A stretch of 64,000 nucleotides of DNA from an uncultured Candidatus Saccharibacteria bacterium (GCA_964538855.1 CAZIEY010000001.1:163059-227058), one strand, 5' to 3'. Counted from the stretch's first letter, positions 4,773-8,620 are shown. Translations and numbers: made by a program. Notes: generated by a model not told the origin, from the sequence alone.

Positions 4773-5525
4773 TTACACCACCACCTTCGCGGCATCCCAC
4801 AAAAGCTCAAAAGCCACTTTTTCCATCTCAATAATATTTTTGTTACTAGTTGCAATAATGTGTACGGGTGGAATCGTCTGATGAATACCTACCACCGACG
4901 ATGTGATGGCTTTGCTCACAGACATTAGGGATGGTGATGTGAAAAAACGAACAGTTTTTCCCAAGGCAGGATGTTGCAGTACGAGATTTCGATTTTCTTC
5001 TGTGTCTTGAACGAGCAACGCGACCCTCACCCCCTTCTCGGTTCGACGCTTGATAAAAGATTGAAAATAATCCACATCATCTGAAATAAAAGAATTCGAA
5101 TTGCCGATCGCGTAATAATAATCTCCGACACGTAAATTATTAAGCAACGACTCGTAAAAGTTTTTAATCGGAGTTGTACCCTTCACCACAGAAAACTCGG
5201 TCGCTTCATGGGCTTGAGTGTGCAAAGCCTGCAATTCCGGGATAATGCCGCGAATTTTTGACTTGGTGAACTCGGCCATATTTTCCAATTGATCAGGTGG
5301 AATTGCGACATATTTCTTTTTCAAGCCAACATAGGTCTCTGTCGCGAAACCCTTATCAACTATTTGATGTAAAATCGGGTATACAGCCGTTCTCTCCATG
5401 CCAAGCACACTTGCAATATGAGCAATGGTGCTTGGACCATTAGCGATGAAGGCAGTATAAAGCTTTGCCTCTTGTTCTGAGAGACCTAATAATCCCAATG
5501 TTTCGTGTATATTCCGGTATTTCAT
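4773..5525 (-). CDS. TrmB-family transcriptional regulator
   Basis: N-terminal HTH (LGLSEQEAKLYTAFIANGPSTIAHIASVLGMERTAVYPILHQIVDKG) plus a C-terminal TrmB-like domain. The internal Met is preferred as start; the ORF extends to 5564. Confidence 0.7.
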   Translation of the reverse strand: MKYRNIHETLGLLGLSEQEAKLYTAFIANGPSTIAHIASVLGMERTAVYPILHQIVDKGFATETYVGLKKKYVAIPPDQLENMAEFTKSKIRGIIPELQALHTQAHEATEFSVVKGTTPIKNFYESLLNNLRVGDYYYAIGNSNSFISDDVDYFQSFIKRRTEKGVRVALLVQDTEENRNLVLQHPALGKTVRFFTSPSLMSVSKAITSSVVGIHQTIPPVHIIATSNKNIIEMEKVAFELLWDAAKVVV

Positions 5526-5656
5526 ATATTTGTATAAATATTTCTCACAACTATATAACCACATATAACCTTATAAATCAAGAACATAATGACGTAGATT
5601 CAATTCGATGTAATACATATTTTGACATCACATACGCCAGTGATAGGCTCAACTAT

Positions 5657-6766
5657 ATGAAAATAAACAAGATAATCATAGCGATTTGTGTCGTGATTGC
5701 CACGCTCGGTATTTTTTCCTATAACCACAATCGGGAAGGAACCCTACAAATAGGAGTAGTCGCGTCGCTTACGGGCCCCGGAGCATATTTCGGAGAACAG
5801 TTTGTTTCGGGTTTGTCGATGGCACGTGATGATATCAACGCTCGCGGTGGAGTACGCGGACAAAAAATTGAGCTTATTATAGAAGACAGCCAGACAAAAG
5901 ACACCACTGCCCTTTCGGCTGCCAAAAAGCTAGTCGAGGTCGATCACGTCTCGGTCATCCTAGGAGATTCATGGAATAGCACGACACTCGCAATGCATCC
6001 ATATCTCATGGAACAAAAAGTGATACTTGTTTCTCCGCATATTTCTCTGAACTCGCTTGCGGTAGAAGATTATGCATTCCGCCTGATTCCAAGTACACAC
6101 GAATTTGTCACCCCAATCGCCGACTATGCAGTTGCGCACGATGTACACAAAATTGCAATTGCGCGTGTGCAAAGTCAATTTGGGCAGGAACATGTGGAAT
6201 CTTTTAAGAAAATGTTTGAGGGTGATACCCGTACCATTGTTGCTGACGAAGTTTTCAGTCCATCAGCCACCGACATACGATCTGAGCTCACAAAAATAAA
6301 ATCACAAAATCCTGATGCGGTGTTCAATTTGCACTTATCTGGATTACCTGTCGGATTTCTAATAAAACAGGCGGTCGAAGTTGGTCTAAAGACGCAATGG
6401 TTTGCGGCGTGGAGCTTCGAGAACACAGCACTTCTCAAAGAATACGGCCCTATTCTTGAAGGTGTGATTTACCCTGCTTTTTATGATGAGACGGCTTCGG
6501 CGCGCTCGGAAAATTTTGTTGACCGTGTGAAGAAAATGCAAAAGCCACATGATATGTTTATCGCGCTTGGATATGACACACTCGCAGTGATATCAGATGC
6601 ACTCAACCAGAAAGATGTGCCTAACGCAGACAGTATAAAAAATGCGCTCGAAAATATGCAAGACTTTGAGGGTGTGTCTGGAACTTTTAGCTTCGATAAT
6701 AACGGGGACGCGGTGCGCACTATTTTCTTGAAGACGGTGAGAGACGGTGAGTTCGTGAAATTATAA
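5657..6766 (+). CDS. LivK/Peripla_BP_6-type solute-binding protein, membrane-anchored, orphan
   Basis: N-terminal TM anchor (MKINKIIIAICVVIATLGIF). IGVVASLTGPGAYFGEQ and ELIIEDSQ...SAAKKLV motifs of branched-chain amino-acid binding proteins. No permease or ATPase gene nearby. Confidence 0.8.
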   Translation: MKINKIIIAICVVIATLGIFSYNHNREGTLQIGVVASLTGPGAYFGEQFVSGLSMARDDINARGGVRGQKIELIIEDSQTKDTTALSAAKKLVEVDHVSVILGDSWNSTTLAMHPYLMEQKVILVSPHISLNSLAVEDYAFRLIPSTHEFVTPIADYAVAHDVHKIAIARVQSQFGQEHVESFKKMFEGDTRTIVADEVFSPSATDIRSELTKIKSQNPDAVFNLHLSGLPVGFLIKQAVEVGLKTQWFAAWSFENTALLKEYGPILEGVIYPAFYDETASARSENFVDRVKKMQKPHDMFIALGYDTLAVISDALNQKDVPNADSIKNALENMQDFEGVSGTFSFDNNGDAVRTIFLKTVRDGEFVKL

Positions 6767-6793
6767 AACTCGCTCAACTTCTTCTGTTTGAAA

Positions 6794-7369
6794 TTACTCG
6801 CGATCACGAAACCCTATCGGCTCTTTCTGCTTCTCCTCCTCTATCAAAAATTGCCGAATAGCCTGAAAGACGATTTTGAAATGACTATCGTATTTTTTCT
6901 CGAGCAATTCAATCTTTTCCCGCAATTCTTTGTGCGAGTCGATCATCTCGCGCAGCTTTGTAAAAATTCGAATAATTTGAATGTTGACGCGAATCGCCTT
7001 CTCACTATTGAGCACACTCGAAAGCATTGCGATGCCTTGTTCGGTGAAGACATAGGAACCATATTTTATGTTATGCCCAGACTTATTTTTCAAGGTCGCA
7101 AATTGCGACCTTGGGTCTATTCCGTCGTTTGAGGTCGCAAATTGCGACCTCAAAAACATTTCCGTTTCTTCAACTGACAATTGAAACATGAAATCATCTG
7201 GAAACCGATCATGATTTCTTTTTACTGCTTCGTTGAGACGCTTCGTCACCACCCCATACAGTAACGCCAAATCCCTATCGAACATGACTTTGCGACCGCG
7301 AATATAATAAATTTTGTTTTTAATGTCTTGATGAGTCAAACTTTCGGCGATTCCAATTTCTTTTTTCAT
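6794..7369 (-). CDS. ORF6N-domain protein (KilA-N-like DNA-binding, antirepressor-type)
   Basis: IYYIRGRKVMFDRDLALLYGV.TKRLNEAVKRNHDRFPDDFMFQL matches the ORF6N domain. C-terminal coiled coil. Contains an in-frame duplicated RSQFAT segment. Confidence 0.65.
   Translation of the reverse strand: MKKEIGIAESLTHQDIKNKIYYIRGRKVMFDRDLALLYGVVTKRLNEAVKRNHDRFPDDFMFQLSVEETEMFLRSQFATSNDGIDPRSQFATLKNKSGHNIKYGSYVFTEQGIAMLSSVLNSEKAIRVNIQIIRIFTKLREMIDSHKELREKIELLEKKYDSHFKIVFQAIRQFLIEEEKQKEPIGFRDRE
7093..7150. repeat. Two direct copies of a 19-bp near-palindrome (aggtcgcaaattgcgacct) spaced 39 bp, inside the ORF6N CDS
   Basis: Seen directly. GGTCGC-N5-GCGACC inverted repeat at 7093-7111 and 7132-7150. Encodes the duplicated peptide RSQFAT. 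Confidence 0.8.
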
Positions 7370-7435
7370 GAGCCCTATTATACGGATTGAGTATGAAGTT
7401 TTGTTAAAAAATGTCTAAAGTTTTGACTACACAAA

Positions 7436-7470
7436 AGAAAAACCTCGGCACCACGCCGAGGTTTTTCTAT
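7436..7470 (-). terminator. Rho-independent terminator downstream of the SWIB gene
   Basis: Perfect 9-bp stem aacctcggc/gccgaggtt with a 5-nt loop, flanked by A and T runs on both sides (usable in either direction). Confidence 0.6.
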
Positions 7471-7485
7471 TTCACCTATGTGATA

Positions 7486-7755
7486 TTACGCGCTCAAATG
7501 CTTTGAAACGAGCTTAGTCATTTCGAACATGTTCACCACTTTTTTGCCACCGAATACTACTTCGAGAGCGGCGTCGGCGTTAATATTTCGCTTGTTCTTT
7601 GGATCTTGAAGGTCATTTTTCTTGATGTATGCCCAGAGAGCCTTGACCACTTCTGATCGAGGCATAGGACCTTTGCCTACCACAGCGGCCAATTCGTCGC
7701 TTACTTTCATCGGTTTCATAAATGCAGATGTTGCTTTTCCTGTTTCTTTTGCCAT
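7486..7755 (-). CDS. SWIB/MDM2 domain protein
   Basis: 89 aa. LAAVVGKGPMPRSEVVKALWAYIKKNDLQDP...INADAAL is a typical stand-alone SWIB domain. Confidence 0.7.
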   Translation of the reverse strand: MAKETGKATSAFMKPMKVSDELAAVVGKGPMPRSEVVKALWAYIKKNDLQDPKNKRNINADAALEVVFGGKKVVNMFEMTKLVSKHLSA

Positions 7756-8528: not shown

Positions 8529-8620
8529 GCGGAGACGGAGGGATTCGAACCCTCGAGGCCCTTTTAATGGAGCCTACCTCTTTAGCAAAGAGGCACATTC
8601 GACCACTCTGACACGTCTCC
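8529..8620 (-). tRNA. tRNA-Ser (anticodon GCT)
   Basis: Cloverleaf inferred by eye. Acceptor GGAGACG/CGTCTCC. Anticodon stem CCTCT/AGAGG with loop TTGCTAA. Long variable arm. T-arm GAGGG-TTCGAAT-CCCTC. CCA not encoded. Confidence 0.8.

Follow-up and report, generated by a model that had tools for sequence, protein, structure and literature searches.

A 27-bp dyad-symmetric element in ORF6N-family genes is very probably conserved as nucleic acid and dictates much of a supposed protein motif

We analysed a window of 64,000 nucleotides from an uncultured Candidatus Saccharibacteria bacterium (GCA_964538855.1, CAZIEY010000001.1:163059-227058; positions are counted from its first letter), whose minus strand holds a gene for an ORF6N-domain protein of 191 amino acids (6794-7369). 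This gene contains two short palindromes. They are very probably copies of a dyad-symmetric nucleic-acid element of about 27 bp, which occupies a fixed position in ORF6N-family genes and is selected as DNA. With the same high confidence, sequence comparison leads us to propose that compensatory changes in the element override codon usage and sometimes the amino acid, that the element outlives a change of reading frame, and that it also occurs outside coding sequence. The apparent conservation of the peptide LRSQ[IF][AV]T[SL] would therefore mostly be a consequence of the element being translated as part of a tolerant surface loop.

The 19-mer AGGTCGCAAATTGCGACCT, with 9-nt arms around one central base, is located at 7093-7111 and again at 7132-7150, 39 bp apart start to start and in frame. 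This confirms what an earlier examination of the sequence alone (hereafter the sequence-only reading) had described, including the encoded peptide. The copy nearer the 5' end of the gene (copy 1, 7128-7154, TTTGAGGTCGCAA.A.TTGCGACCTCAAA) extends to 13-nt arms and encodes (F)LRSQFATSN, residues 73-81. The extra in-frame copy (copy 2, 7091-7113, CAAGGTCGCAA.A.TTGCGACCTTG) has 11-nt arms and specifies residues 87-93, (P)RSQFATL. Both copies have the coding-strand sequence AGG TCG CAA TTT GCG ACC, or RSQFAT, within the peptide ...FLRSQFATSNDGIDPRSQFATLK...; the opposite strand would read RSQIAT, the central A/T base giving I or F. The 20-bp spacer between the two 19-mers (7112-7131, minus strand) encodes SNDGIDP and is neither repeated nor conserved among homologues. 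The single-stranded region folds into two hairpins with 3-nt loops, at -36.7 kcal/mol as RNA (z = -7.4) and -24.9 kcal/mol as DNA (z = -7.5), and the copy 1 hairpin has a 12-bp stem and a 3-nt loop.

Shuffled sequences gave 0.02 expected matches to AGGTCGCAAATTGCGACCT, against four strand-matches found in the window. No third copy with up to three mismatches was present in the 64 kb, and relaxed searches with the core or an arm found no further palindrome of the ORF6N type in the other 63 kb. The dispersed element envisaged by the sequence-only reading was not found in the window, and we rejected a dispersed element resembling repetitive extragenic palindromic (REP) sequences or miniature inverted-repeat transposable elements for the window; elsewhere, 92% of listed loci with the 19-mer encode ORF6N. 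A CRISPR array was also rejected, as the repeats can differ by compensatory changes (locus L006), lie in frame in a gene and have no cas genes among their neighbours. The window copies are not accompanied by a T-run, and a scan for intrinsic terminators reported only a hairpin outside the gene (7436-7468).

Copy 1 sits at the family-wide position, being centred on nt 229 both of the window gene and of its syntenic orthologues L185 and L186. Copy 2 is present in the orthologue L186/L187, where it has 13-nt arms, and absent from L185. A recent origin for the second palindrome, either as a 39-bp tandem duplication or as the tiny palindromic insertion that had been suggested, is contradicted by the two-copy state being common to L186; in addition, no second 20-bp spacer follows copy 2, and one copy is found family-wide. 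Copy 1 of the window (TTTGAGGTCGCAATTTGCGACCTCAAA) differs from its counterpart in L185 (TTTGATGTCACAATTTGTGACATCAAA) by two compensatory pairs, AGG/ACC having become ATG/ACA (R to M) and TCG/GCG having become TCA/GTG.

To look across the family, we used 80 ORF6N genome loci retrieved with peptide patterns that excluded the palindrome motif, from phyla that include Omnitrophota, Nitrospirota, Patescibacteria, Planctomycetota, Proteobacteria and Acidobacteriota. Nearly all 80 contained a near-perfect palindrome with its motif, centred on the first base of codon 4. Among distinct ORF6N gene regions from many phyla and phages, 103 of 103 hold at least one palindrome between FMFQL and FTEQG; the number per gene ranges from one to four, with two to four in 17 of the 103 regions and two in the window gene. 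The consensus spans 27 bp (YTTRAGGTCRCAAWTTGYGACCTYAAR). ORF6N genes on viral contigs likewise carry the in-gene element, with further compensatory variants. The comparison did not show the peptide kept without the palindrome: orthologues and distant homologues alike retain the palindrome through compensatory changes while peptide and copy number vary, which upholds the earlier view of a DNA-level palindrome over a protein repeat.

Codon choice within the motif is tightly constrained. In each arm pair a wobble position faces a constrained codon position, which means that at six residues the palindrome can be formed by a single codon only. At arm positions 2-13, 79-99% of cases show Watson-Crick pairing, compared with 23-48% after synonymous resampling with local usage (except at two pairs that the amino acids force), and pairing returns to background at position 14. 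On average 8.0 of nine pairs are formed, where resampling predicts 4.1. Relative to the rest of the same genes, the motif is strongly enriched in AGG (42 of 55 Arg codons versus 15%), ACC (50 of 62 versus 27%), GTG (38 of 39 versus 24%), GCG (18 of 18 versus 28%) and CAA (67 of 71 versus 45%), and TTT and ATT together account for 59 of 59. The serine codon is TCA when residue 5 is valine (TCA/GTG, 37 cases) and TCG when it is alanine (TCG/GCG, 17 cases), and the wobble combination TCG/GTG was seen once.

Covariation between the arms points in the same direction. Across 76 distinct 31-mer elements, 94.1% of cells are paired, versus 24-45% in slid controls. Both sides change in nine of the 12 pairs, and compensatory cells number 147, where shuffles give 37.5 and 0 of 500 reach the observed value; since the sequences are phylogenetically related, independent events are fewer than these counts suggest. 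Almost no variation is seen at positions 1-3 (CAA.W.TTG), and covariation begins at position 4.

Such a pattern would also be expected of an RNA hairpin in the ORF6N transcript, with a 12-bp stem and a conserved apical CAAWUUG, that controls mRNA stability or translation from the 5' leader, the coding part or the 3' end and possibly binds the ORF6N protein or a host RNase. We consider this unlikely. The covariation supports a helix, an invariant apex on a covarying stem is typical of protein-bound RNA hairpins, the predicted fold is strong with its 3-nt loops, and copies before the start codon, in the gene and after the stop codon could all share one transcript. However, G:U pairs are avoided where they would be synonymous: ACT replaces ACC in one of 53 cases (about 37% expected), TCG is paired with GTG in one of 39 (about 49% expected) and CAG is used in four of 55 (55% expected). 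In-gene mismatches on the sense strand are more often A:C than G:T (34 versus 16, and 20 versus 10 in a second count), while extragenic ones lean the other way without significance (G:T 19 versus A:C 10). In L207 and L290, upstream arrays reach to more than 250 nt before the start codon, and neither tolerance of G:U nor a described RNA family was found. An Rfam scan of 6500-7700 at permissive thresholds returned sub-threshold noise only and no family at threshold. In our view, DNA appears more likely than RNA to be the acting form.

The peptide follows the DNA. Residue 2 of the motif is S, C, F or Y (codon T-N-N) and residue 5 is A, V or G, in the codon combinations that pair: TCG/GCG, TCA/GTG, TGC/GGC and TTC/GGA. 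The flanks covary in the same way, as TTG..TCA A (L..S), TTA..TTA A (L..L), TCA..TTG A (S..L) and TGG..TCC A (W..S). In four lineages (L021 at 1715-1739, L066, L069 and L079), the only such genes examined, the palindrome occupies the homologous place in frame +1, with its centre at the second codon base. In this subfamily, for example, GAACTGGTCACAA.A.TTGTGACCGGTTC encodes ELVTNCDRF, compared with LRSQIVTS in the usual frame; other frame +1 peptides are EVITICDNL and ELVAICNRF, the latter with the compensatory core variant GTTGCAA.T.TTGCAAC. The peptide V[AT]NCD may be widespread among ORF6N proteins. To judge from these sequences, this subfamily implies an ancient entry into and exit from the frame around the element, with the DNA kept. 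Frame independence is the strongest single argument we have that nucleic acid, and not peptide, would be the conserved thing.

Copy number is variable as well. Homologues contain one to four RSQ[IFN][AV]T motifs separated by unrelated hydrophilic spacers, and P0002 has three copies while P0003 has one, though the two are 98% identical in the A4 alignment. Centre-to-centre distances between in-gene copies are 36-54 bp and always multiples of three; in-frame duplication of the element with its spacer gives the one to four copies per gene. In an AlphaFold2 (AF2) model of the window protein, residues 76-101, which include both copies, have a predicted local distance difference test (pLDDT) score below 50 and lie between a helix (66-79) and a strand (106-109). 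Residues 77-85 of the single-copy orthologue P0003 also score below 50, in keeping with the suggestion that the palindromes are tolerated in a loop. Elsewhere the model has a β-hairpin, helices at 31-38 and 42-51 in a helix-turn-helix-like arrangement, and long C-terminal helices at 123-159 and 162-175. A sequence-profile search of the PDB with the window protein found no relative. Foldseek of the model against the PDB gave only weak, non-significant winged-helix-like matches (Ski/Dachshund, RacA and MerR; best E = 0.2), so we claim no fold membership.

These observations leave next to no room for an ordinary protein repeat, in which RSQFAT would be a functional peptide motif duplicated in the loop and its palindromy incidental. 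R, S, Q and T are typical DNA-contacting residues and the motif belongs to the Pfam ORF6N profile. Against this, synonymous positions are fixed to the pairing codon, residues 2 and 5 vary exactly as pairing dictates, one subfamily translates the element in a different frame, non-coding copies exist, and the predicted structure is of low confidence at the motif. We rejected the protein-repeat explanation as already contradicted by these codon, frame, non-coding-copy and structure data.

We then considered copies outside coding sequence. Of the 80 loci retrieved without the motif, about 11-13 have palindromes of the same family in their flanks. A metagenome scan for the exact window 19-mer, a sample conditioned on containing it, gave at least 120 loci, and 110 of the 120 listed encode an ORF6N homologue (tblastn). 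The listed loci hold 185 palindromes: 131 within ORF6N coding sequence, 24 up to 400 bp upstream, 15 up to 400 bp downstream, four farther away and 11 in loci without ORF6N. The 43 extragenic copies cannot be gene fragments, since ORF6N coding motifs flank none of them. Their consensus, free of coding constraint, equals the in-gene consensus, which argues that the amino-acid motif is the translation of the element and not its cause.

The placement of these copies is recurrent. At least one lies 18-60 nt before the start codon, one is in the gene, and often one follows just after the stop codon, as in L288, L209, L286, L290, L292, L255, L207, L271, L261, L282, L311, L221 and the viral loci L156 and L139 (start codons and promoters are inferred positions). 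Copies 18-60 nt before the start were found in roughly 10-15% of other ORF6N loci; the window gene has in-gene copies only. In L024, two copies end 13 nt before the ORF6N ATG. In L006, whose gene order is parB, ORF6N, array and topA, six palindromes follow directly after the ORF6N stop codon (2140-2425) with an exact centre-to-centre period of 51 bp, and these copies differ in their arms while each remains internally complementary.

Replication could in principle maintain such symmetry by itself. In a self-perpetuating quasi-palindrome, arm-to-arm template switching would preserve symmetry and generate compensatory changes and duplications without any function. Template-switch correction of quasi-palindromes is an established mutational mechanism (Ripley; Lovett), and it would suit the strictly Watson-Crick complementarity with no tolerance of wobble, the symmetry kept among differing copies of one array, and the occurrence of both in-frame duplications and extragenic tandem arrays. 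Still, we find this account quite improbable. The palindrome is retained in every one of the 103 gene regions across phyla, its sequence is conserved beyond mere symmetry in copies free of coding constraint, and it is placed non-randomly at the start and stop codons of one gene family. Moreover, ordinary genomes do not build up such palindromes, and none was found in the remainder of the window.

In L288, L286, L292, L255 and L290, copies lie on either side of the ORF6N gene. This might suggest a recombination or mobility site, with the palindromes marking the ends of a small ORF6N cassette or serving as its att-like sites, or acting as hot spots of exchange and duplication among 'Bro-network' genes, by means of a recombinase or HUH-type enzyme encoded elsewhere. 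Consistent with such a site, tandem ORF6N paralogues were seen in 15 of the 80 loci (L018, L033, L035, L048, L063 and others), copy number varies between near-identical orthologues, and very similar ORF6N genes were found in many phyla and phages. L033 also holds an additional, 5'-truncated ORF6N copy (1052-1486) that begins about 20 codons before its palindrome. We nonetheless regard a mobility site as improbable. A search for conserved partners by all-against-all BLAST of 248 neighbouring open reading frames (ORFs) recovered only ORF6N paralogues (15 loci), ComM-like proteins (four) and the type I restriction-modification subunit HsdM (three), and no recombinase, HUH or integrase gene was among the recurrent neighbours. 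Gene order around the window gene is conserved in its orthologues, so the gene is stably inherited. Distance correlations between N- and C-terminal blocks were all low, with no break at the palindrome, in a test of low power. Finally, an in-gene end would break the gene at every event.

What, then, might the element do? Dyad symmetry and a conserved sequence, as found in operators of dimeric repressors, are both present here, and the same 27-bp consensus occurs in coding and non-coding copies. Because the dyad element is tied to a gene whose product is helix-turn-helix-like and has long C-terminal helices, and because it sits over the 5' end of the ORF6N gene in many loci, we tentatively suggest that the ORF6N protein recognises this element as its own cognate cis-site, with autoregulation as the outcome, a suggestion that we place somewhat short of probable. 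The ORF6N protein would bind through its helix-turn-helix-like domain, presumably dimerised via the long C-terminal helices, within its own gene, at one site or more, and in many relatives additionally downstream of the stop codon and over the promoter or 5' leader. Binding could result in negative autoregulation, by a roadblock at the in-gene site, by looping where there are several sites, or by both, and a candidate phage-defence or antirepressor-type protein would in this way be held at a controlled level. Complementarity as far as position 13 suggests that an extruded hairpin or cruciform may be recognised or used, or that the arms may additionally be homogenised by template switching. The operator and autoregulation proposed in the sequence-only reading remain plausible in view of the elements 18-60 nt upstream of ORF6N starts in other loci, but the window itself has no upstream copy. 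Taken as one statement, a DNA element together with this mechanism of cognate site and autoregulation, our interpretation is possible, if a little less probable than its negation.

Several observations weigh against it, in addition to the relatedness of the compared sequences mentioned above. The proposed link from protein to site is one of co-occurrence. The window gene and most of its relatives have in-gene copies and no promoter copy. Differing arm variants occur within one gene or array, each internally complementary (L006, L013 and L070); these, together with the pairing to position 13, are not explained by a simple duplex operator and point to a hairpin or cruciform, or to arm-to-arm conversion. 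Copies in the 5' leader and after the stop codon are all inside the likely transcript, so that a role at the RNA level fits their positions equally well. Lastly, many copies on viral contigs stand alone as hairpins flanked by A- and T-runs, with no ORF6N gene nearby.

In the viral loci (L081-L171), the palindrome core occurs as single long perfect palindromes with 10-15-nt arms, for example in L094 (10715-10745), L105 (5411-5441) and L085 (5996-6020). The stand-alone copies are often flanked by A- and T-runs in the manner of bidirectional terminators, and 67 of the 80 matches listed have no nearby ORF6N gene. Several have outer arms of the ORF6N type (TTTAAGG/TTTGAGG). The viral scan, in which related phages are counted redundantly, returned 91 stretches for the real palindrome and 12 and 1 for two scrambled controls. 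Stand-alone viral copies are enriched over chance, and they are candidate targets, decoys or convergent terminators.

These viral copies can be accommodated in a more speculative scheme that we consider distinctly unlikely, in which the ORF6N protein and the palindromes form a gene-plus-site module. The protein would be a putative binder specific to hairpins or cruciforms that carries its own target in and around its gene. In those members that are defence candidates by the PDC-S05 profiles of PADLOC, the gene's own hairpins would restrain the protein, or act as a decoy or sensor, until it is titrated or activated by phage DNA or replication intermediates with the same hairpin, and the stand-alone phage copies would be targets or counter-decoys.

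Assignment of the host gene is based on ORF calling, Pfam, PADLOC, PHROG, the AF2 model and synteny. The window protein matches the Pfam ORF6N family profile hidden Markov model (HMM; PF10543) across the full domain (profile positions 1-86 of 86) with an E-value of 9.1e-31 and 106 bits, where the cut-off is 27.8. The PADLOC HMMs for PDC-S05 also match it (PDLC04856, E = 1.2e-52; PDLC04869, E = 1.8e-52), and PHROG annotates its relatives as anti-repressor. Pfam and PHROG thus both group it with antirepressor-type proteins that bind DNA. A PDC-S05 representative protected Escherichia coli from T7, T5 and T4, with plating of T7 and T5 reduced about 1000-fold, and this tested representative was described with a Virulence_RhuM domain (bioRxiv 10.1101/2024.09.26.614923). 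It may therefore not be an ORF6N-type member. Literature searches on ORF6N, the palindrome core, KilA-N with palindromes and PDC-S05, whose coverage is incomplete, found no description of the element.

The closest named relatives of the window ORF6N protein come from Patescibacteria. On one side the solitary gene has a SWIB gene as neighbour and on the other a convergent gene for a periplasmic binding protein, and this gene order, SWIB, ORF6N and periplasmic binding protein, is common to the syntenic orthologues (L185 and L186). Between the SWIB and ORF6N genes lies a strong 15-bp hairpin with T-runs on either side (7436-7468, AGAAAAACCTCGGC...GCCGAGGTTTTTCT), which probably terminates transcription from both directions and so sets the ORF6N transcription unit apart. 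A lone half-site, TTTGCGACCGCGAA, which contains GGTCGCAA on the minus strand, is found further within the ORF6N gene (7289-7302, codons IRGRKV), 147-186 bp away from the palindromes. It may be a chance occurrence: the 8-mer has seven matches in the window against 1.9 expected, and four of the seven are palindrome arms. We also observed that the periplasmic binding-protein gene (5465-6766) has a perfect 10-bp tandem duplication at its 3' end (6732-6751, AGACGGTGAG twice), and a tRNA-Ser(GCT) on the minus strand (8529-8620) between a HAD-hydrolase gene and recG.

Our results indicate that a supposed protein motif of a widespread family, one that is both of the antirepressor type in the phage 'Bro network' and a candidate anti-phage defence gene, would be dictated by a nucleic-acid element. 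This would be a clear natural case in which selection at the DNA level overrides codon and amino-acid choice across phyla and reading frames, and the differing lengths of ORF6N proteins are accounted for by in-frame amplification of the element. A candidate target defined to 27 bp offers a testable handle on the function of these proteins. The element escapes searches for structured or regulatory elements that are restricted to intergenic regions, so other regulator families of mobile elements may hold comparable signals within their genes. If the module scheme were true, the Pfam 'protein motif' would be a translated nucleic-acid signal, and the palindromes a new class of REP-like elements with a non-HUH partner.

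The ORF6N element shares features with several known systems. The lac O2 operator in lacZ and gal OI in galE are auxiliary intragenic operators that act with DNA looping, each a palindrome in coding sequence some hundreds of bp away from a promoter-proximal operator with the same sequence, and L288, L209, L024 and L156 resemble them in having an upstream and an in-gene copy about 250-300 bp apart. However, the lac and gal operators lie in target genes and not in the gene of the regulator, they are not known to shape a family-wide protein motif or to have arms that evolve by compensation; conversely, most ORF6N genes, including that of the window, have only the in-gene site.

Arrays are known from other contexts. 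F-plasmid sopC-type centromeres are arrays, and baculovirus homologous region (hr) palindromes occur near bro genes, which belong to the same 'Bro network' of domains as ORF6N, although hr palindromes are bound by IE-1 and are not known to be bound by BRO proteins. Similar to sopC and hr, the six copies in L006 with their 51-bp period form a fixed-period array of short palindromes beside the gene of a DNA-binding protein. Unlike with sopC, no partition ATPase is linked to the ORF6N element, and arrays are the exception.

REP sequences and bacterial interspersed mosaic elements (BIMEs) are extragenic and dispersed, with hundreds of copies per genome, and the REP-associated tyrosine transposase (RAYT) is an HUH/Y1 transposase. 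The ORF6N element resembles the REP/BIME-RAYT system in consisting of short hairpin palindromes with conserved sequence and complementary variation, arranged singly or in arrays and flanking the gene of a protein thought to act on them. In contrast, ORF6N copies are in or adjacent to the gene with none elsewhere in the 64 kb, and no catalytic motif is known for ORF6N. Rickettsia palindromic elements are reportedly inserted in frame in protein genes, so that in both cases palindromic DNA is translated within a protein and tolerated in a surface region. Yet the Rickettsia elements are 100-150 bp long, mobile and found in many unrelated genes of one genus, whereas the ORF6N element is 27 bp long, restricted to one homologous site in one family, ancient and spread over many phyla.

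A further parallel is the centromere site parS, which is said to lie inside the spo0J/parB coding sequence. It differs from the ORF6N element in its length and fixed sequence (16 bp), with most copies outside parB around the origin; the 27-bp element has compensatory arms, undergoes in-frame amplification, and hardly occurs beyond the ORF6N gene and the sequence immediately flanking it. In both systems, however, a dyad site within the coding sequence of a DNA-binding protein's own gene is conserved across many species and accompanied by extra copies elsewhere, with binding by the protein presumed in the case of ORF6N.

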